50,168 nt of DNA from Escherichia phage vB_EcoS-DELF2. Shown in pieces: positions 9,459 to 40,884 of the stretch. Location of the stretch: the sequence record NC_049832.1; one strand, 5' to 3'. A program made the position numbers and the translations under genes. The notes beneath the pieces were generated by a model that worked only from the letters and a program-made list of their open reading frames with translations, was not told the DNA's origin and searched no databases. How positions within the stretch are numbered: the first letter of the stretch is position 1; each line of letters begins with the position of its first letter.

Positions 9459-10027
9459 TTGTTGATGAACGTGGCGGCTATGTGCTGAGCGGTAATTTCT
9501 GGATTACCTTCGACAGAAAAGAAGTCACATTCCTGATAACCGTTGACCCCGATCATATCGTCAAGATAGATATAGTCGCGGCTGTCGTTGTCAAAGTTGC
9601 AACCGTTGCGATGGATTCGACATAGCTTTACCTGGATATCACCTTCAATCATCTGCAAGATCTCGTCTTTGAATCCACCGTCAGTAAATACCGAAAGGGA
9701 GTGAGACTCTTTCACCTTGCTTTCCGCTCGCATACCGAAGAAGCGATTTCCGAACTGCGGTTTGATGACCTCCTCGCTAATCCAGATCATAAACTGGCGC
9801 GGGCTTTTACCGTTCAGGATTGATGCTGGCTCTTCTTTATAGCGACGGTCCTCATACAAGAACATGAAATATTCGAAATTAGCCTCACCCAGGATTGCTC
9901 GAGCAATCTCAAACATTGGAGCTTTGAAGCTGCGTAGCGCTACATGATCGTAAGTGTCAGCCAGGATGCATCCGATAGTGTCTTTTCCTGCGCCCGGCGC
10001 GCCGTTTAAAATGATAGCTGTTTTCAT
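9455..10027 (-). CDS. P-loop nucleotide kinase (adenylate-kinase-like GAPGAGKDT)
   Basis: N-terminal P-loop NGAPGAGKDT. Confidence 0.55.
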   Translation of the reverse strand: MKTAIILNGAPGAGKDTIGCILADTYDHVALRSFKAPMFEIARAILGEANFEYFMFLYEDRRYKEEPASILNGKSPRQFMIWISEEVIKPQFGNRFFGMRAESKVKESHSLSVFTDGGFKDEILQMIEGDIQVKLCRIHRNGCNFDNDSRDYIYLDDMIGVNGYQECDFFSVEGNPEITAQHIAATFINK

Positions 10028-31522: not shown

Positions 31523-33370
31523 ATGGCTTTATATAGACGCGGCACTGCATCAATGGATGCAGACGGCACGGTTCACGGAACCGATACGAAATGGAAAGAT
31601 CAGCTTGCTCTGATTCGAGTCGGTGCAACTATCGTATTCCTGGAGCAACCAATTAAGCTGGCGGTAATCAGCGATATTGTGAGCGACACAGAGCTAAAGG
31701 CTATCTCTACGGATGGTCAGACTGCCGCTGACGGAAAGTATGTGATCCTGCTTAACGATTCACTGACTGTAAACGGATTAGCTCAAAACGTTGCTGAGAC
31801 ATTGCGTTACTACCAGAGCAAAGAAACTGAGATCGCTGCGGCTCTTGATATCATCAATCAGCTTGATATGGATAAACTTGAGCAAATACTTGCTGAGGTG
31901 AATAAGGCGAAATCTGATTCTCAAGCTGCGCAAAATCAGGCTGAATTAGCGCGTGACGCAGCCAACGCTGCACGCGATGAAACTAACTCAATCAAGAACC
32001 AGACTCAACAAATTGTTGACGGTGCTGTAGGTAGTATTAATGCAGCAAAGGATCAGGCTATTACTGATATCGGATCTAAGGAATCATCTGTCATCACTCA
32101 CATTGACACTGAAGAGGCGGCGGCCATTCAGGCAATCAATGATGCTAAAGGCGATCTATTCGGGTATGTTAATGATGCTCAGACTGCGGCGCAAACTGCA
32201 ACATCAGCAAAAAACGATGCCCAAGCAGCACGCGATGCAGCGGTTAGCGCCAAAGATGCGGCAGCGGTAAGTGCTCAGGAAGCTCAGGACGCAGCAAATA
32301 GCGTTAATGCTGACAATCTTTTAACTAAGGACGGTAATTTAGCTGGTCTTGAGGATAAATTAGAATCATGGAAAAACTTGAGGCCAGACGCCCCATTAGA
32401 GTTACTTAAAGATCCTGAAGGCAACATGGACGCAACTACTAAGGGTTGGGTTGAGAAAGGCCTAAAAGTAAACGAATGGTCTATTTATAAAAATCTAGAC
32501 TCTGAGCCGCCAAGCGGTTCCGATTCTTCAGGCGGCAGGATTGATTCAAAATTCAAGGTTGGTGAAGTTGATAAGTACAGATCCTCTTTCGAATTGCAGG
32601 GAGGTAATGAAATAGATATATGGACAAGGATAACAACAATCAATGACAGATATAAGCAGGGCGCGGCAACATGGGATTTCAAACTGGACGGAAAGTTGAT
32701 TTTTAACAAGGGTCTAACACCAAATGGAACTGGATACTCGCCAGGTAATACCTATTTGACATTAGCTAATACATGGATGAGTTCTCAGCACAGCGGTTAT
32801 ATTGGTCTAGTTGGTGGCGGCGTTGGTGTATCTAACGGAGGCTGGAGGAACTTTGTTTCTTTGGGAGCGCTTATTTTTCCAGATAGTACTCACCCGCAAG
32901 CGGTAATATCTCAGGTGTACGATTATGATATAGCTTCAGGTAATCAGCCAAACGGTGACATTATAAGGAATACATCGTTTAACGCTGAGAGCTACGACAT
33001 AACGTTTGGGAATAACTCAGGTACTGTCAACTATATATTTTCCAAGTCTCCAGTGTCAGATGAGAGACTTAAAAGCGACATAAGGGATATTGAAACAAGA
33101 TTGGCGCTTGACAATTTGATGAAAATGAAATACCGATCATTCACATACAATTATGACAAGGAGAAAACTGTAAGGAGAGGGTTCATAGCTCAACAGCTTA
33201 TGAGCATAGATAGTCAGTACGTTAGAAAGTACGGAAATATGAATGGGGAAGATTACACGTTATCACTTGATGAGAACGTTCTTTTGCTTGACGCTATAGC
33301 TGCGATACAGGAGCTTTCAAAGCAAGTATCTTCTCTAAAAGAAGAAATAAAATCACTTAAACAATCATAA
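31523..33370 (+). CDS. lateral tail fiber with C-terminal intramolecular chaperone (peptidase S74-like) domain
   Basis: Coiled-coil Ala/Gln-rich shaft; C-terminal SDERLKSDIRDIE...YRSFTYNYDKEK chaperone signature. Confidence 0.75.
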   Translation: MALYRRGTASMDADGTVHGTDTKWKDQLALIRVGATIVFLEQPIKLAVISDIVSDTELKAISTDGQTAADGKYVILLNDSLTVNGLAQNVAETLRYYQSKETEIAAALDIINQLDMDKLEQILAEVNKAKSDSQAAQNQAELARDAANAARDETNSIKNQTQQIVDGAVGSINAAKDQAITDIGSKESSVITHIDTEEAAAIQAINDAKGDLFGYVNDAQTAAQTATSAKNDAQAARDAAVSAKDAAAVSAQEAQDAANSVNADNLLTKDGNLAGLEDKLESWKNLRPDAPLELLKDPEGNMDATTKGWVEKGLKVNEWSIYKNLDSEPPSGSDSSGGRIDSKFKVGEVDKYRSSFELQGGNEIDIWTRITTINDRYKQGAATWDFKLDGKLIFNKGLTPNGTGYSPGNTYLTLANTWMSSQHSGYIGLVGGGVGVSNGGWRNFVSLGALIFPDSTHPQAVISQVYDYDIASGNQPNGDIIRNTSFNAESYDITFGNNSGTVNYIFSKSPVSDERLKSDIRDIETRLALDNLMKMKYRSFTYNYDKEKTVRRGFIAQQLMSIDSQYVRKYGNMNGEDYTLSLDENVLLLDAIAAIQELSKQVSSLKEEIKSLKQS

Positions 33371-33400: not shown

Positions 33401-33859
33401 TCAGAATGGGATATCATCGTCAAATGTTGACTGAGGGTTCGGTTGTGGTTGTTGTTGAGTTCGCTGTTGTTGCTGAGGGTTCGGTTGTGGTTGTTGTTGA
33501 GTTCGCTGTTGTTGCTGAGGCGATCGCTGTTGTTGATTGCTTTGTCCTCGTTGACTGAATACCAGCTTAGGAAAATCAGCGGCCTGCAATGAATTGTAAA
33601 CCTTTCCGTTGTGCTCACGGGATGAGATCTTCAACGTTTCGCATGATACAGATATAACTCGACCAACCTGGAACGCTTCACGATACCAGTCAGCAAGGCC
33701 AGGCTTTCCACCATCACTAAAAAAGAATGTGTAGTTGGTGTATTCTCGATCGCCATCACGAGGTTTATAGCTCTCTGCCAGTTCGATGATATAAGTATTG
33801 CCGCCGTTACGCTCCAGAATCTTAGGTTCTTTTCGGATCTCGCCAGTGATAATATGCAT
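33401..33859 (-). CDS. ssb: single-stranded DNA-binding protein
   Basis: C-terminal acidic tail DDDIPF; Gln/Pro-rich linker with tandem repeat. Confidence 0.85.
   Translation of the reverse strand: MHIITGEIRKEPKILERNGGNTYIIELAESYKPRDGDREYTNYTFFFSDGGKPGLADWYREAFQVGRVISVSCETLKISSREHNGKVYNSLQAADFPKLVFSQRGQSNQQQRSPQQQQRTQQQPQPNPQQQQRTQQQPQPNPQSTFDDDIPF
33431..33540. repeat. 42-bp tandem repeat (about 2.5 copies) inside SSB linker
   Basis: ctgagggttcggttgtggttgttgttgagttcgctgttgttg repeated; encodes QQQRTQQQPQPNPQ twice. Confidence 0.85.
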
Positions 33860-35692: not shown

Positions 35693-36218
35693 TTCGTTTA
35701 TCTCCCTCGTTTACGATGAATCCATTATAGCCATTAACAGCGTTTAGTCAATCGAATACATGTAATTGGTGTGTAATTGCGTGTCTATATCACTCAAGTT
35801 ACAACCAGCGCCAACGGAATCAATTACTTAATCCTGTTTTTATGTGGTGTCTATTGCGTAATACTTGTAACCGCTTTTTCTTAGAAATACAAAGATATCC
35901 ATGAATAGAATCAAGATTGATTATATTTTGAACAAATATGATAGAAATTTGACGAATCAATCAAATCACCAGTTACACGATAGACAACTGTTACACAACA
36001 ATAATTATATATATAAAGCTAAAATTAAATATTATCTATCTATATATATTATATAGAGTTTTTATCACATCACCATGCGGTCGGATGGGGTGGATTTTGT
36101 AACACCTGTTCCGGTTACAAAAATAGACACCTGTTACACGAAAAAATTGTAATCGCGCTATTGCAATAAAAGTAAATGCGACATACAATGCAATCACACT
36201 AACGACGAGGACATACAA
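35693..36218. repeat. AT-rich divergent intergenic region with iteron-like repeats
   Basis: ATAGACA(A/C)CTGTTACAC x2, GTGTCTAT x2 in opposite orientation, TGTAACACCTGTT, ATATTATCTATCT. Confidence 0.5.
36160..36189 (+). promoter_or_regulatory. canonical sigma70-type promoter (TTGCAA-17-TACAAT) for lipoprotein gene
   Basis: Read directly; approximate coordinates. Confidence 0.5.
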
Positions 36219-36449
36219 ATGAAAAAGTTAATCGCCATTATTGCTGCTGCATTTATCCTGACTGGTTGCGCTCAGAATCTTAAAAATGGAGACTGCGTTA
36301 CTTACGCTTACGGATCTTGCATGATGCGATTCGTTGACGGTAAGAAGGTTCCGGCTGGCGAAATCGATATGCGATTCAAAGGTCTGTCATCCGACGACGA
36401 TCAGGGTAACTTCAGCGGAAAGGTGTCAATAAAAACTAAAGAGTGGTAA
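36219..36449 (+). CDS. small lipoprotein, putative superinfection-exclusion factor (Cor/Llp-like)
   Basis: Signal peptide with lipobox LTGC; 76 aa; next to tail fiber/receptor-binding locus. Confidence 0.6.
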   Translation: MKKLIAIIAAAFILTGCAQNLKNGDCVTYAYGSCMMRFVDGKKVPAGEIDMRFKGLSSDDDQGNFSGKVSIKTKEW

Positions 36450-36451
36450 TT

Positions 36452-37408
36452 ATGGGACAAGGAATATACATAAATCTAAATGACGGTCGTCCGGCAATGG
36501 AGATAACCTCTGGACTTCGCGCCCCGTCATGGTGCGGACCAATACAAGCGGACGGGGTTGATTCATCTGGATCGGTTTTTGATTTTGGTCTGCAAATGAG
36601 TCCAGGGTCTACTGCTTTTTGCCTTCCATCTCAGGCTATCTACATAGACGATATGGATTACATCCCGGAGGTGTATTATTTGACCAGTTTTCAGAAGGTC
36701 AATGATTCAACCGGACGAATAACGGTAGGTAATTTTAACGGGCACGGTGGAAGGAGGATGAGATTTTATGGCAACTGTTACGAAATCCTCCCCGCTCAGG
36801 CTGGAAATCAGGGGATACTTGTTAACGATTCAACGAACTTCGCAGCGATACCGAATAACGCCAGATTGATGAGCGCTGCATTTGTTGGGGGGATTCAGGT
36901 TAACGGTCAGGCTCAGTTGCCAGTACAGGGCGTTCCTTTCGGTATGTGGGATAATCCAAACGTAACACTTGAATCTGACGGCAATACAATATGGTGCAGG
37001 GATGCAAACTATAACGGGATTGATGACGTTGGCGCGAGCGTATACGTTCAACTCGTAATATTTAATAACACCCCACCACCTCCTGGGCCTGGAATAACTA
37101 TGAGTAACCCTGCTGGCCAGATCGTTTTCTCAAGCGTTAGACGCCCCTTCGTTCTTGGCGGGACTATGGCGATAAATGATGGTTGGCAGTGGTGCGGTGG
37201 ATTTTTCCCAATACTGAGAACAGGTACGATATGCAGAGTTACAGGTGGATATAATAACATTCGATACAAGGGCGTTTGCATGAGCGGCGGTAACGTGAGA
37301 AGCGCACCAGGAACAAGGGTAGGTAACTATTCTACTCAGAGCGGCGCTCAATTTCCCTTCAATATAAACATTTCAATGCCAATTCCTTTCACTCCAAACA
37401 TGTATTAA
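36452..37408 (+). CDS. putative receptor-binding protein
   Basis: Gly/Asn-rich beta-type protein encoded between the lipoprotein and the J-like gene. Confidence 0.4.
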   Translation: MGQGIYINLNDGRPAMEITSGLRAPSWCGPIQADGVDSSGSVFDFGLQMSPGSTAFCLPSQAIYIDDMDYIPEVYYLTSFQKVNDSTGRITVGNFNGHGGRRMRFYGNCYEILPAQAGNQGILVNDSTNFAAIPNNARLMSAAFVGGIQVNGQAQLPVQGVPFGMWDNPNVTLESDGNTIWCRDANYNGIDDVGASVYVQLVIFNNTPPPPGPGITMSNPAGQIVFSSVRRPFVLGGTMAINDGWQWCGGFFPILRTGTICRVTGGYNNIRYKGVCMSGGNVRSAPGTRVGNYSTQSGAQFPFNINISMPIPFTPNMY

Positions 37409-37412
37409 AAAA

Positions 37413-37428
37413 GGGGCCGATCGGCCCC
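37413..37428. terminator. bidirectional terminator GGGGCC-GATC-GGCCCC
   Basis: Between convergent receptor-binding and J-like genes. Confidence 0.7.
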
Positions 37429-37434
37429 TTTCTG

Positions 37435-40400
37435 TTACCAGACACCAACAACCACTCGGCCCCCGTTAGGTAGGTTAACCGTGATCCCGTTATTGTTTAT
37501 CTGAACCGTATTGTTTGTCCCGTTGAATGCAAACGATCCGTTATCTGCATACAAAGCACCCCTTACGGTTGCGTTCATGAAGTAAGCTGCACCATTCTTG
37601 TTAATATGCCACCCTTGATTTCCATCCCAATTGTTAGACTGAATCGCGTTACCAATCATGGCGTTAGTAATAAATCCATCCTTGATGATCGCGCTACTTA
37701 GAATAACCTGGCCATTCTCAACAACGAATGGGTACTGAGTCTGACCATTCATTCCAGTCATGATGGCAAATCGTGATGCCTCAAACAAAATCTGCGCCTT
37801 AACCGCAGCTCCGGAACCAATCAGAGACATAGCCATGCCTGCACTGTATTCTTGGCCGTTATACTTCAGACCGAGCTTGACTCCGTACATTGCACCAGTC
37901 GAATCCGCATTGCTCCACGAATCAAGTTTTTGAGAAAGTGCCGCCTCATTATTCCCAAGCCTCGCGCTTAACGACAAGTCAGCTTGCGTTCTAGCCTCAG
38001 TCTCGTTTGCTATAGCCTCTCTGATATCAGTCAAACTTGCCTGGATATCATCATCAATCTCTGCCCTTAGTTGGTCAATTTCACGCGATAGCGCTCCAGT
38101 CTCAGTTGCGATAACTTCACGCAATTCGCTGTTGCTAGCGCTAATCTGATCGCCAAAACTCGCCTTCAATTGCTCGATCGCCGTCACTCGTGCCTGCGTC
38201 TCATCAGCAATAAGTTTCAGTGATTTCGTGTACTCAGCTTTTCGTTTTCCGTTCTCCTTCTTCATGTAGATCGCGTCTTTGTCATTGGCGAGAGCGTTTT
38301 CTATTGCTGCCTCTGCGTTAGCTGCGTTCTGCGCCGCGTTGTCGGTTGCGTTATCAACAAGCCACTCGTAGCCCGGAGAGTTTTCGATATCAACAGAAAT
38401 CTCTCCGATGATATCGTCTACGTTGGTCGATGCCATGCCCCTGACGAAATCAGTCCACTGAGAAACGTTACCGATCCTGTCAACCGTCCTTACCCGATAC
38501 CACACAATATTCCCACCCGGCATCGGTGAGTGATAATACTCATGCTGCGGGTACGGAATCAAAGAAAGCAAACTTGCGTTATCCACTGTTCCATCCGGTG
38601 ACTGTTGCAACTCTGTATAGGCCGTATCTCCAGAACCATCAGAGAACCCCCATTTTGTACGGATACCAAAAACAACATCATCCGTAGCTGTGAGGTTAAT
38701 CGGTCGACCCGGCTCACCTTGTTTGCCCGTCAGCGTCGCAGCTACGATATTTGACCATCCTGAAGTCGTACCGGAACCAGCTACGGAGCGAACGCGAACC
38801 TGATAGTTGCCAGCGTAAATACCCTCAACGTAAACCTCTTTGTTTGCTGTCTGCGGAACGTTTTGCCAGTTGCCGTTATCCTTTCTCCACTGTACGTCAT
38901 AGAAAACTGCGTACGGCACTTTATCCCAGCTAACAATCATCGTTTCTACGCTCATCCCCTGGACGATTCTCGACTCTGAGGACACTTGCACGTTTTCCGG
39001 TCTAGGGATCTGATCTGGTTCAACGATGCTCGTCGGTCGGTCGTCGATGTTAACTCCGTAATCAATCTCGTCGTACTTGTTAGGATCGTACTCCACCGCC
39101 GTGATTTTGTAGGTAAATTCCTCGTCATCATCGCCCTTATCGATTTTTGTCACGACGTACTGTTGTAGCGCAATGTCGGTGCGGTCGATAGCGAATACCG
39201 TGTTAGGCTTCACAGGAAAGCCAAAGCCAATGTTAACCTCTATAGTCTTACCATCCGCGCTAACACTTGAGATTGTGCGCTTCACGGGCTTGCCATCGGG
39301 CTTATTTACTATAATAAAGTCACCTGCGCGCGCATCCACACGGAACGGCAAGAAAATCTGGCTTCCAGACACTTCAAGCAAGCGCCCTGATAGGTTCATA
39401 GTCAAGTTGCTTGACCAGAAGTTGTCGGCTATTGCCACAACATCACCTATTGTCGGGATCATGCCCTCAAGCCCGGTCGCGAAGTTTACCGTAGTGCTGC
39501 GAAGGTTGGTCTTCAGAATCCATCGCCCTCGTCGGTTAGCCTCGCTTCGACGCGTGCAACCTATCGCTGTAATGCTGGTTACGTTATTACCAAACCGCAG
39601 AGTCGCCTCACGATCGAATACTGGCTCAACGTCCTGTTGATACATGTTTTGTTCGTCGTCAAACATCACGTTACACGTCGTGTACATACTCTTTTCGCTT
39701 GCGAACGTATAGGAGAAGTCACCATTAACAACGTTGTCGTTAGTGAAGATGTACGCAGGCTCACGCGGTCTGTCGATGATTACCGAGATGCTTTCACCAT
39801 TCCAGAAGCTCATACCACGGAATATTGAGCAAATATCTCGAATAACCTTGTACGCATCAGTCTGTGACTGAATTATCACGTCGCAAAGGTATCGAGGCTC
39901 CGTACCGCCTTTCCCGTCAGGAACCATCTGGTCGCAATATTGCGCCGCCTCATATAGCGCCCATTTATCGACAGATATTCCAAGCTCTTTCTGATCCAGC
40001 CCATAACGCTGATTAATCATCAGGTCGTAAAGCACCCAAGCCGGGTTATTCGTCCACGCCTTCTTAAAAGTGCCATCCCAATTTCCGTTATAAGTTCGTG
40101 ACTCCGGATCGTAGTTTGATGGAACGTTTACAATCTTCCATCGCTTACGAATTGAGATCGTAGGTAACTGGTTTGGGAACATCTTCGAATCAAACTCGAC
40201 AAAAAGAAGACCAGTCAGCGGGTAACGGAATTTGGCATCAATCACCTCGGCATAGCTCTTTACCTGAATCGCGTCAACAACGTTCGAGTCGTTAGAGTCT
40301 GGAGTTTTCCTAACCACTCTGAATATCACCTGATTGTTGAAGTTAGGTAGGTTTATACGTCTGCTTCGATCGTAACCTGACATTGTTTTACCTTCGATTA

Positions 40401-40884
40401 CATCGGTGAGCACCGTCTCAAACGAGCCGCCATCAACAGCCTGTTGCACCTCATACTCAACTCTTACGCCGTTTTTATCTCCGTTGCTTTCAATGCGTAC
40501 GCCGCGAGGCATGAACATTTTAATACGGATTGCCGACAGCGTCTTGTTGGTTACTGAGATCGTGTATGGATTATCGGTAGTAACCTCACGGTTTACAGTT
40601 ACCTCGCTGGAGCTATCCTCCATGCCCTTAATGTATTCCTGAGTCTGCGTACCCGGCCTGAACTCTGCTGTTACGCCCTCAAAGTTAAAAGAGCCATCCT
40701 CGTTTTGCACCGGGACTGAGTTAAACATCAGTTGCTTAAGGTTGAATGTTTCGTCAACCTCGCCATCAGATACTGCCAGAAGAATCTTGATTTTGTTGAT
40801 TGAGATTAGATTATCTTCCATCTCAACTGGCTTATGCGGCTTTTGTGTTCCACCTTTAGATCCACTTATCACTTTTTGAATCAT
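37435..40884 (-). CDS. central tail fiber / host specificity protein (lambda J-like)
   Basis: 1149 aa; last gene of lambda-like tail module after I/K/L/M homologues. Confidence 0.85.
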   Translation of the reverse strand: MIQKVISGSKGGTQKPHKPVEMEDNLISINKIKILLAVSDGEVDETFNLKQLMFNSVPVQNEDGSFNFEGVTAEFRPGTQTQEYIKGMEDSSSEVTVNREVTTDNPYTISVTNKTLSAIRIKMFMPRGVRIESNGDKNGVRVEYEVQQAVDGGSFETVLTDVIEGKTMSGYDRSRRINLPNFNNQVIFRVVRKTPDSNDSNVVDAIQVKSYAEVIDAKFRYPLTGLLFVEFDSKMFPNQLPTISIRKRWKIVNVPSNYDPESRTYNGNWDGTFKKAWTNNPAWVLYDLMINQRYGLDQKELGISVDKWALYEAAQYCDQMVPDGKGGTEPRYLCDVIIQSQTDAYKVIRDICSIFRGMSFWNGESISVIIDRPREPAYIFTNDNVVNGDFSYTFASEKSMYTTCNVMFDDEQNMYQQDVEPVFDREATLRFGNNVTSITAIGCTRRSEANRRGRWILKTNLRSTTVNFATGLEGMIPTIGDVVAIADNFWSSNLTMNLSGRLLEVSGSQIFLPFRVDARAGDFIIVNKPDGKPVKRTISSVSADGKTIEVNIGFGFPVKPNTVFAIDRTDIALQQYVVTKIDKGDDDEEFTYKITAVEYDPNKYDEIDYGVNIDDRPTSIVEPDQIPRPENVQVSSESRIVQGMSVETMIVSWDKVPYAVFYDVQWRKDNGNWQNVPQTANKEVYVEGIYAGNYQVRVRSVAGSGTTSGWSNIVAATLTGKQGEPGRPINLTATDDVVFGIRTKWGFSDGSGDTAYTELQQSPDGTVDNASLLSLIPYPQHEYYHSPMPGGNIVWYRVRTVDRIGNVSQWTDFVRGMASTNVDDIIGEISVDIENSPGYEWLVDNATDNAAQNAANAEAAIENALANDKDAIYMKKENGKRKAEYTKSLKLIADETQARVTAIEQLKASFGDQISASNSELREVIATETGALSREIDQLRAEIDDDIQASLTDIREAIANETEARTQADLSLSARLGNNEAALSQKLDSWSNADSTGAMYGVKLGLKYNGQEYSAGMAMSLIGSGAAVKAQILFEASRFAIMTGMNGQTQYPFVVENGQVILSSAIIKDGFITNAMIGNAIQSNNWDGNQGWHINKNGAAYFMNATVRGALYADNGSFAFNGTNNTVQINNNGITVNLPNGGRVVVGVW

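Follow-up and report, generated by a model that had tools for sequence, protein, structure and literature searches.

Known receptor-binding and exclusion modules

T1, through ST32-ST31-Cor, and T5, through pb5 and Llp, follow one logic: a dedicated receptor-binding protein (RBP) is accompanied by a small lipoprotein that faces the periplasm and puts the receptor, FhuA in both phages, out of action. The locus we describe here is closest to a module of the same logic directed at LptD, an essential protein of the outer membrane. That module, its receptor and both of its mechanisms were published between 2021 and 2026, so our finding itself adds no new biology. In coliphage Rtp (Braunvirinae, with an Rtpvirus backbone) the pair is Rtp44 and Rtp45, and Rtp45 binds the periplasmic face of LptDE (cryo-EM, PDB 9rps; Dunbar et al., PNAS 2025, PMC12685063). 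Rtp45 physically displaces an LptD loop, whereas Llp affects its TonB-dependent transporter through long-range allostery; the same authors report that the AF3 model of Rtp45 was wrong (PMC12685063). In Oekolampad (Bas18, a Dhillonvirus) the RBP is bas18_0025 and the lipoprotein bas18_0026. The complex of this RBP with LptDE is also a cryo-EM structure (PDB 9rpt), and its Gln299 is reported to hydrogen-bond LptD Ser350 (PMC12685063). Temperate siphophages of the mEpimmI group carry the module too, adjoining J, as gp80/gp81 (Lpp021) of mEp021. When Lpp021 is supplied in trans, mEp021 itself is excluded; the receptor need reported for mEp021 was OmpA, in part, and LptD was not tried there (PMC11893012).

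Three further results frame the comparison. LptD-directed RBPs have been grouped by a family rule of more than 30% identity over more than 99% coverage (bioRxiv 10.64898/2026.04.02.716166). Within that family, conservation is lowest in the loops predicted to touch the receptor (Black et al., PMC13035648). And the LptD changes ΔY658-Y678, ΔL394-V396, D352Y and Y671N block other LptD-dependent phages.

A two-gene locus beside the gpJ-like gene

The window, by which we mean the whole 50,168-nucleotide stretch of DNA analysed, is that of a Tunavirus-like phage, and the DNA of the locus is 94–97% identical to that of the Shigella phages ISF002, pSf-2, Sfin-1 and SH6. Our reading, to which we give a probability of roughly 0.88, is that the two genes form the cassette by which a T1-like (Tunavirus-type) siphophage specifies its terminal receptor, and that the allele here is the LptD one. 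An earlier note made from the letters alone had proposed a small exclusion lipoprotein next to a dedicated RBP, separate from the J-like gene and jointly setting host range and self-exclusion. Homology to experimentally characterised proteins with just these roles supports both the pairing and the joint role. The note was right, if about something ordinary: the two genes are a T1-like phage's copy of the module described above. The coding features are as follows.

36219..36449, plus strand: Rtp45-family superinfection-exclusion lipoprotein (predicted role), 76 aa; PF24052, PHROG 4281, PDB 9rps_D
36452..37408, plus strand: predicted LptD(E)-type RBP, 318 aa, DUF6453; PF20051, PDB 9rpt_C, AF2
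37435..40884, minus strand: gpJ-like central tail fibre or tail tip protein, 1149 aa, presumed anchor of the RBP; PHROG 31, Pfam
37435..37640, minus strand: J C-terminal tip, about the last 60-68 residues, LptD-type allele, within the swapped cassette
~36270..~37640, no strand: specificity cassette exchanged relative to T1, ~1.37 kb, comprising the mature lipoprotein, the RBP, a terminator and the J tip

Both smaller reading frames are real genes, with Pfam matches at E 1e-24 and 1e-126 and hundreds of phage homologues for each. The RBP gene lies directly 3' of the gpJ-like gene and converges on it, with the small lipoprotein gene preceding it, and this layout (J -> <- RBP <- lipoprotein) is the same in Rtp, Oekolampad and mEp021; in T1, by contrast, the RBP genes are on the J strand. 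What lies 5' of the lipoprotein gene differs as well, being a lateral tail fibre gene in Oekolampad and the recE intergenic region here. The two genes had been taken to overlap. The frames exist, but the lipoprotein gene ends in TAA at 36447-36449, two nucleotides (TT) follow, and the RBP gene begins with ATG at 36452. We prefer this start because homologues begin with MGxGI at exactly that position. It gives a protein of 318 residues rather than the 321 first quoted, a length that came from a mechanical GTG start at 36443.

The putative receptor-binding protein

Described beforehand as Gly/Asn-rich and of beta type, the 318-residue protein is indeed both. Glycine makes up 13.2% and asparagine 8.8% of it, against 7.2% and 5.1% in the window's long open reading frames, and its AF2 model (pLDDT 83, pTM 0.82) is a predicted all-beta sandwich devoid of helices. 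It matches Pfam PF20051 (DUF6453) at E 1.2e-126, with 422 bits against a cut-off of 25, and in a phmmer search it aligns from residue 1 to 318 with residues 1-321 of PDB 9rpt_C (E 9.5e-67), a chain 100% identical to the Oekolampad RBP gene product. Fold agrees with sequence. Foldseek superimposes the model on 9rpt_C at E 6e-20, with a TM-score of 0.91 (target-normalised) and an rmsd of 2.1 Å, so that the double beta-sandwich of the solved Oekolampad RBP is present in the model. Against the PDB the same search returned nothing besides 9rpt_C below E 0.1, and no pb5-, lectin- or tailspike-like relatives. The earlier note had looked to the RBPs of T5 and T1-like phages for a comparison; this protein bears no relation to T5 pb5 or the product of T1 ST31.

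At 100% coverage the identity is 40.4% to FritzHoffmann (Bas20), 42.6% to Bas83 and 40% to Rtp44, full length. For Oekolampad (Bas18) it is ~42% by proxy, through StarDew, which matches at 41.5% and whose own RBP shares 99.1% identity with that of Oekolampad. LptD dependence has been validated or predicted for these comparison phages (Bas18, Bas20, Bas83 and Rtp), and the figures place the protein inside the family rule of >30% identity and >99% coverage. Gln296 aligns with Gln299 of the Oekolampad RBP. The surface loops of the two proteins are divergent, and the two phages belong to different genera. The mEp021 RBP is 41.6% identical. Nearer still are the orthologues in the Shigella and E. 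coli Tunavirus phages SH6 (ORF49/ORF50), Sfin-1, pSf-2, ISF002 and Shfl1, whose RBPs are 99-100% identical to ours (SH6 ORF49, 99%) and whose loci differ from it by a few substitutions. By sequence, then, the protein is an orthologue of SH6 ORF49 and a homologue of Rtp44 and the Oekolampad RBP. The SH6 protein had itself been modelled and counted among the predicted LptD-dependent RBPs of the Tunavirinae (PMC13035648), and the prediction of an LptD binder has therefore been in print for a 99% identical orthologue.

The lipoprotein

The 76-residue lipoprotein gene at 36219..36449, with its lipobox LTGC, was borne out. The protein starts MKKLIAIIAAAFILTGC, has a signal peptide at residues 1-16 and carries the predicted lipidated cysteine at position 17, followed by alanine at +2. 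Under the sorting rule of the Lol pathway, a residue other than aspartate at +2 directs a lipoprotein to the outer membrane, and the processing site reads MKKLIAIIAAAFILTG|C-A-Q.

Its family is equally clear. Matches are to Pfam PF24052 (Phage_lipoprotein; E 1.3e-24, 86 bits against a cut-off of 27), PHROG 4281 (E 5e-37) and PDB 9rps_D, which is Rtp45 (E 1.2e-9); BLASTP against Rtp45 gives E 1e-14 at 36% identity. In NCBIfam there was no family for either the lipoprotein or the RBP, except for one match to the signal peptide only. The lipoprotein resembles Rtp45 in length, lipobox, cysteine pair and hairpin motif, the last being mostly conserved, and its Cys26 and Cys34 align with the Rtp45 disulfide Cys30-Cys38. 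The C-terminal third differs, running ...SSDDDQGNFSGKVSIKTKEW here and ...KGSSGSVRDYGSKEWN in Rtp45. Identity rises to 50% with mEp021 Lpp021 and 68% with Oekolampad bas18_0026. Seven residues (G24, C26, G32, C34, G41, P45 and G47) are invariant both in a six-sequence alignment and in the alignment with Lpp021; D50 and R52 are invariant in the first and replaced in Lpp021. What such residues do in the Rtp45 structure has been described (PMC12685063). These similarities assign the protein to the Rtp45 family and, by analogy, predict that it blocks LptD from within infected cells.

The J tip and the boundaries of the cassette

The gpJ-like protein carries the Pfam domains Phage_Tail_Tip, FNIII-A_GpJ and Phage-tail_3. 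It is ~97% identical to T1 J as far as about residue 1080 and then diverges; its last ~58 residues align with the J tip of Oekolampad and not with that of T1, through the common pattern GW.I.K.GAA.F...TVRG.LYA..G.F.F.G...TV.I...G..V.LP.GGRV.VG.W. The J tip co-varies with the type of RBP, as has been reported (bioRxiv 10.64898/2026.04.02.716166).

The divergence of the tip is one edge of a larger replacement. In a sliding comparison with T1, identity drops from 0.87-1.0 to ~0.3-0.5 at 36263-36282 on one side and at 37650-37620 on the other. On the right the junction falls ~65 codons short of the end of J. On the left it coincides with the lipobox cysteine codon, and so the promoter, leader and signal peptide have been reused for two unrelated exclusion lipoproteins. 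T1 has ST32, ST31 and Cor in the same genomic slot; the promoter, leader and signal peptide of cor are shared with the lipoprotein gene here, while the mature proteins of T1 are unrelated to ours. Composition gives no signal of horizontal origin, the GC content of the cassette (0.47) equalling that of its flanks; the only AT-rich stretch is the intergenic region.

Within the cassette the two genes have separate histories. The RBP is nearest to those of Rogunavirus phages (66-69%) and the lipoprotein to those of Dhillonvirus phages (65-71%), and in XJA18 the lipoprotein is 92% identical but the RBP only 42%. Such sequence relationships indicate that RBP and lipoprotein are exchanged independently. 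We would suggest, tentatively and at somewhat less than even odds, that receptor switching in these phages uses fixed recombination linkers and sub-modules finer than the usual 'RBP locus'.

Which receptor?

From its RBP, at ~40% identity to the typed proteins, the phage is predicted to depend on LptD(E), not FhuA. The most serious competitor to this assignment keeps the protein families and moves the receptor: the RBP would have shifted to another outer-membrane protein or a glycan, and the lipoprotein would exclude LptD-dependent competitors rather than the phage's own kind. An identity of only ~40% to validated LptD binders leaves room for such a shift, the more so in a family whose receptor-contacting loops are its most variable part (PMC13035648). 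Independent shuffling of RBP and lipoprotein alleles, as in XJA18, the partial OmpA dependence of mEp021, which carries the same module (PMC11893012), and the presence of Rtp45-like lipoproteins in podoviruses for which the phage-record matches listed include no DUF6453 protein all point the same way. Yet all members of the RBP family that have been typed experimentally so far map to LptD, the fold is kept at a TM-score of 0.91, the linked lipoprotein retains the Rtp45 features that contact LptD, and the J tip belongs to the type associated with LptD. With these in the balance we regard a shifted receptor as improbable.

Less probable again is a module of the Cor/Llp type with FhuA as its target, like those of T1 and T5, in which a Cor orthologue inactivates FhuA and the phage adsorbs to the same protein. 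The attraction is obvious, since the backbone is T1-like. Furthermore, BLASTP aligns the lipoprotein with T1 Cor (E 8e-10, 43% over 53 residues), PHROG 1119 (Cor) matches it at E 5.5e-6, and SH6 ORF50 was described as 45% identical to T1 cor (Hamdi et al. 2017). But 16 of the 23 identities to Cor lie within the 17-residue signal peptide, leaving ~7 among 36 aligned residues in the mature part. The PHROG 1119 match spans residues 1-33 only, and in DNA the match to T1 cor reaches no further than the lipobox cysteine codon. The FhuA-type partners of T1 (ST32/ST31, N15 gp22/23-like) are absent from the locus, no Llp appears among the lipoprotein's PDB sequence matches at E<=10, and no pb5 among the sequence or fold matches of the RBP. 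We accordingly reject membership of Cor for the lipoprotein, its similarity being confined to the signal peptide at both protein and DNA level, and homology of the RBP to T1 ST31 (E 0.5). Of the Cor/Llp-type exclusion lipoprotein suggested earlier, the exclusion role survives as a prediction through homology to Rtp45 and Lpp021, while the family does not.

A third possibility is that the 318-residue protein has no part in adsorption and is a moron or a membrane protein of no structural role, as its labels in RefSeq ('membrane protein') and PHROG 1265 ('membrane protein; moron, auxiliary metabolic gene and host takeover') would have it and as the missing orthologue in the SH6 virion might suggest. 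This is scarcely credible for a modelled all-beta sandwich without helices. Moreover, the mEp021 record, for which mass spectrometry was used to map the structural genes, gives the homologue as a virion structural protein. Of the 11 proteins that LC-MS/MS detected in SH6 virions, J and the lateral fibre among them, none was ORF49 (Hamdi et al. 2017); we give this absence little weight, since a protein expected at low copy number is easily missed in so shallow a survey.

Expression signals

Three further features frame the two genes.

36161..36189, plus strand: sigma-70-like promoter candidate, TTGCAA-17-TACAAT, 9 of 12 consensus positions, common to T1 cor
36207..36211, plus strand: Shine-Dalgarno sequence GAGGA, 7 nt 5' of the lipoprotein ATG, identical in T1
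37410..37431, both strands: bidirectional intrinsic terminator hairpin with a GGGGCC-GATC-GGCCCC core, lying where the RBP and J genes converge

A canonical sigma70 promoter had been claimed. The hexamers and spacer are exactly as given (TTGCAA at 36161-36166, 17 nucleotides, TACAAT at 36184-36189), but at 9 of 12 consensus positions the site is not canonical. A scan of 2 kb found six such sites against 5.4 expected from shuffles, a count not above chance, so the hexamers by themselves prove nothing, and the claim of expression from a canonical promoter cannot be substantiated statistically. In the candidate's favour, 36163-36232 is 100% identical to the region 5' of T1 cor. The annotators of SA32RD chose a different candidate, TAGACA-18-TGTAAT, equivalent to 36124-36153 here. 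The timing of expression we can only predict from homologues.

The terminator is on firmer ground. Our terminator scan missed it, and direct folding revealed a strong bidirectional hairpin at 37410-37431, with a ΔG of -16.6 kcal/mol on the plus strand and -18.4 kcal/mol on the minus strand (z ~-3.9; none of 200 shuffles was as stable). SA32RD is annotated with terminators on both strands at the equivalent hairpin. Here the hairpin ends the operon where the J gene converges on it. Considered as an enriched operator word, TGTTACAC occurs twice against 1.18 expected, which is not significant alone; longer repeat units than this do occur.

Proposed mechanism

By analogy with the homologues, events might run as follows. 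The promoter and 5' leader held in common with T1 cor would drive a two-gene operon. The 76-residue prolipoprotein would be exported by Sec, lipidated at Cys17 and sorted by Lol, the alanine at +2 implying an outer-membrane destination, so that a mature lipoprotein of ~6.5 kDa comes to lie at the periplasmic face of the outer membrane, bound to the LptDE translocon. As Rtp45 does, it would then insert a beta-hairpin into the lumen of LptD and push extracellular loop 4 aside, leaving the phage RBP unable to dock; infected cells would be spared superinfection and progeny spared adsorption to debris. On the virion, the all-beta RBP would be held non-covalently on the matching C-terminal tip of J, and its loop-bearing tip would enter the lumen of open-state LptD, as proposed by analogy with the Oekolampad RBP, making adsorption irreversible.

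What the assignment changes

The practical value of the finding lies in annotation and prediction. This Tunavirus-like clade would be treated as LptD-dependent rather than FhuA-dependent, and the T1 resistance for which tonA/fhuA strains are sold would not be expected to extend to this phage; an Rtp-like phage infecting such strains has been described (Black et al. 2025). In phage cocktails its receptor class would differ from that of T1. The labels 'membrane protein', 'moron' and 'Cor superinfection exclusion protein' mislead for both genes.

A last observation concerns distribution. Rtp45-family lipoproteins also occur in the early regions of ~76-kb Gordonclarkvirinae podoviruses, for which there was no DUF6453 RBP among the matches listed. 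LptD-directed exclusion, or the use of LptD itself, may thus reach past the small siphophages.

Gene layout and expression signals

The window comes from a T1-like phage, and its region 36000-37500 shares 94-97% identity with genomes of Tunavirus phages of Shigella and E. coli: ISF002, pSf-2, Sfin-1, SA32RD, SH6 and Shfl1. Here a two-gene operon meets the gene for J, a tail-tip protein of gpJ type. We read the operon as a module of an LptD-type receptor-binding protein (RBP) and an Rtp45-family exclusion lipoprotein, with a probability of about 0.88 for the account as a whole.

36161-36189, plus strand: promoter candidate TTGCAA-17-TACAAT, 9/12 match to consensus
36219..36449, plus strand: prolipoprotein gene, 76 aa, N-terminus MKKLIAIIAAAFILTG, cut before C
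36452..37408, plus strand: RBP gene, 318 aa, ATG start
37410-37431, both strands: strong bidirectional hairpin between the operon and the J-like gene
37435..40884, minus strand: J-like gene, convergent with the lipoprotein-RBP operon

Both ORFs lie where the earlier note had placed them, and the lipoprotein gene has GAGGA 7 nt upstream of its start. The promoter that the note called canonical does have its hexamers, but sites of this type are no commoner in the locus than in shuffled sequence, and the SA32RD annotators' promoter candidate is another one, a few bases upstream. Nor do the two genes overlap, as had been supposed: their junction reads TAA-TT-ATG. The claimed length of 321 aa counts from a mechanical GTG start at 36443; from the ATG, which with MGxGI is common to all homologues, the protein has 318.

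The recE-like gene and the lipoprotein gene diverge from an AT-rich intergenic region (35693-36218; 526 bp, GC 0.28-0.30) that is 89-100% identical to T1 throughout. The unit ATAGACAnCTGTTACAC is repeated there: 35980-36001 and 36123-36144 are direct copies, 35967-35980 is a related one, and 35846-35861 and 36095-36109 are inverted partners. An imperfect, AT-rich palindrome lies at 36006-36048 (21-nt arms, 81% complementary). These could be operator sites for divergent promoters.

The predicted receptor-binding protein

The earlier note described the 318-aa protein as Gly/Asn-rich, of beta type and a candidate RBP separate from the J-like fiber, and this reading is supported. Its Gly and Asn contents are 13.2% and 8.8%; the long ORFs of the window have 7.2% and 5.1%. 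The protein belongs to Pfam DUF6453 (E 1e-126) and PHROG 1265. A search of all PDB sequences gives a single match, chain C of 9rpt/9rpw/9rqi, which spans the full length (E 9.5e-67). That chain is 100% identical to bas18_0025 of Oekolampad (Bas18), the RBP whose cryo-EM structure was solved on LptDE (Dunbar et al., PMC12685063). An AF2 model from 43 homologues (pLDDT 83, pTM 0.82) is all-beta and has 9rpt_C as its sole significant structural match (TM 0.91, target-normalised; rmsd 2.1 Å). Neither pb5 nor any other phage RBP was among the structural matches, and ST31, the T1 partner gene product, is unrelated.

Identity is 100% to the Sfin-1 copy, 99% to SH6 ORF49, 66-69% to Rogunavirus phages Jk06, AHP42 and C119, 42.6% to Bas83, 40.4% to FritzHoffmann/Bas20 and 40% to Rtp44. 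In Drexlerviridae and related small siphoviruses the terminal receptor can be predicted from which RBP allele lies downstream of gpJ (BASEL paper), and four unrelated RBP families, for FhuA, BtuB, LptD and YncD, have been confirmed (bioRxiv 10.64898/2026.04.02.716166); by the membership rule of that preprint, >30% identity at >99% coverage, our protein falls in the LptD family. The SH6 orthologue had been modelled earlier and named a predicted LptD-dependent Tunavirinae RBP (Black et al. 2025, PMC13035648). To judge from homologues, LptD(E) would be the terminal receptor, a reading tempered by an identity of ~40% to validated binders and by the variability of receptor-contacting loops (PMC13035648). 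A shallow virion proteome of SH6 lacks the orthologue.

The most conserved residues of the family are M1, G4, I7, D11, I18, G21 and R23, with a motif around G121, S127, T128 and F130. These stretches (1-23 and 121-133) lie near the N-terminus and are the least confident of the model (pLDDT 43-60). The N-terminus has been assigned to the tail-proximal base (Black et al., PMC13035648), and in the solved RBP the region nearest the tail shows poor order (Dunbar et al., PMC12685063). By analogy with homologues the RBP would dock on the J tip, and these two stretches are a plausible J-docking surface.

The predicted exclusion lipoprotein

With 86 bits against a cut-off of 27 the lipoprotein falls in Pfam PF24052 ('Phage lipoprotein family'), and it also belongs to PHROG 4281. 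In the PDB only 9rps chain D, Rtp45, matches it significantly (E 1.2e-9). It is 68% identical to Oekolampad bas18_0026, 50% to mEp021 gp81 and 36% to Rtp45, whose Cys30-Cys38 disulfide aligns with Cys26/Cys34. Five residues, G24, G32, G41, P45 and G47, do not vary within the family; D50 and R52 are constant in a six-sequence alignment and replaced in mEp021. Rtp45 binds LptDE on the periplasmic side, between LptE and LptM, and its hairpin runs up the lumen, pushing extracellular loop 4 aside by as much as 20 Å and so preventing RBP docking (Dunbar et al., PMC12685063). Lpp021, the mEp021 homologue, excludes mEp021 and mEp515 when supplied in trans (PMC11893012). Our lipoprotein, predicted from its +2 Ala to be sorted to the outer membrane under the Lol rule, would likewise exclude by displacing the LptD loop.

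The exclusion role proposed in the earlier note thus stands through homology to Rtp45 and Lpp021; the Cor/Llp affiliation does not. BLASTP against T1 Cor gives E 8e-10, yet 16 of the 23 identities fall within the 17-residue signal peptide; the PHROG Cor match spans residues 1-33 only, and the PDB sequence search returned no Llp chain at E<=10. The signal peptide (36219-36269) is identical to that of T1 cor (9801-9851 of the T1 segment, minus strand) at 16/17 residues, and the mature proteins are unrelated. This near-identity accounts for the 'Cor' annotations and for the figure of 45% identity to cor published for SH6 ORF50.

Cassette boundaries and shuffling

The left flank is 87-100% identical to T1 from the recE start through the intergenic region, promoter candidate, Shine-Dalgarno, ATG and signal peptide; identity drops to background within 36263-36282, at the lipobox Cys codon, where the signal-peptide match to Cor marks a recombination junction. 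On the right, J is ~97% identical to T1 J until about residue 1080, diverging around 37650-37620. The last ~58 residues resemble the Oekolampad J tip and not that of T1, in agreement with the published co-variation of J tip and RBP type (bioRxiv 10.64898/2026.04.02.716166). At the site of this ~1.37-kb segment T1 has three genes, of which ST32 and ST31 share the strand of J and cor lies on the other; the common promoter candidate and leader would therefore drive cor alone in T1 and the lipoprotein-RBP operon here.

Among the matches listed, nearest relatives are discordant within the cassette: Rogunavirus phages for the RBP, Dhillonvirus phages for the lipoprotein. In Escherichia phage XJA18-XJ-2024 (PV584117, ~50.6 kb; segment L007, 1501-2699) the flanks are 80-100% identical to the window, the lipoprotein is 92% identical and the RBP, Dhillonvirus-like, 42%, with DNA identity falling near 36500. 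The RBP can thus move without its lipoprotein.

The finding correctly recognises a known module: the literature already contains its type, the families of the two proteins, its receptor, the two structures and a prediction for an orthologue that is 99% identical. The small additions made here are where exactly the junctions lie, with the T1 cor signal peptide being reused, that RBP and lipoprotein are shuffled independently of each other, and that podoviruses of the Gordonclarkvirinae carry Rtp45-family lipoproteins.

J also has, near residue 921, a 33-residue deletion relative to T1 J, which removes one copy of the coiled-coil repeat REVIATETxALSREIDQLxAxIxDDIQASLTDI.

Related systems

Temperate mEpimmI siphophage mEp021 has a lipoprotein-RBP module next to J, as in the window (gp81/gp80; segment L008, 1283-2436). 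It is reported to be partly OmpA-dependent, and its authors assigned OmpA as receptor, leaving LptD out of account (PMC11893012). The terminal receptor of the mEpimmI group may need re-examination.

Gordonclarkvirinae/Kuravirus-like podoviruses of ~76 kb carry an Rtp45-family lipoprotein in their early small-gene region: Bas87_0096 of AnnaHegner_Bas87 (segment L005, 3947-4273), with further carriers NJ01, ECBP2, SU7, EP335 and Bas94. The lipobox LTGC and the Cys pair are kept, identity over the mature part is 36-39%, and Bas87 has a 28-aa insertion. Phages of ~76 kb were absent among the 60 records listed, out of 335, for the 318-aa protein search. LptD is essential and invisible to transposon screens; given this and the lipoprotein's presence, these podoviruses may use LptD or exclude LptD-dependent siphophages.

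Other features of the window

A 152-aa ORF (33401-33859, minus strand) lies where T1 has ST27, a hypothetical protein of 140 aa. The C-terminal tail encoded by the window's ORF is Q/P-rich and has QQQRTQQQPQPNP twice in tandem, then acidic DDDIPF, an ending typical of SSB proteins. The lateral tail fibre (31523-33370, plus strand, 615 aa) ends in a Peptidase_S74 intramolecular chaperone domain and is the second host-range determinant, probably a glycan-directed one. It may be a mosaic, since the PHROG tail-fibre family matched by its N-terminal half differs from that matched by its C-terminal half.
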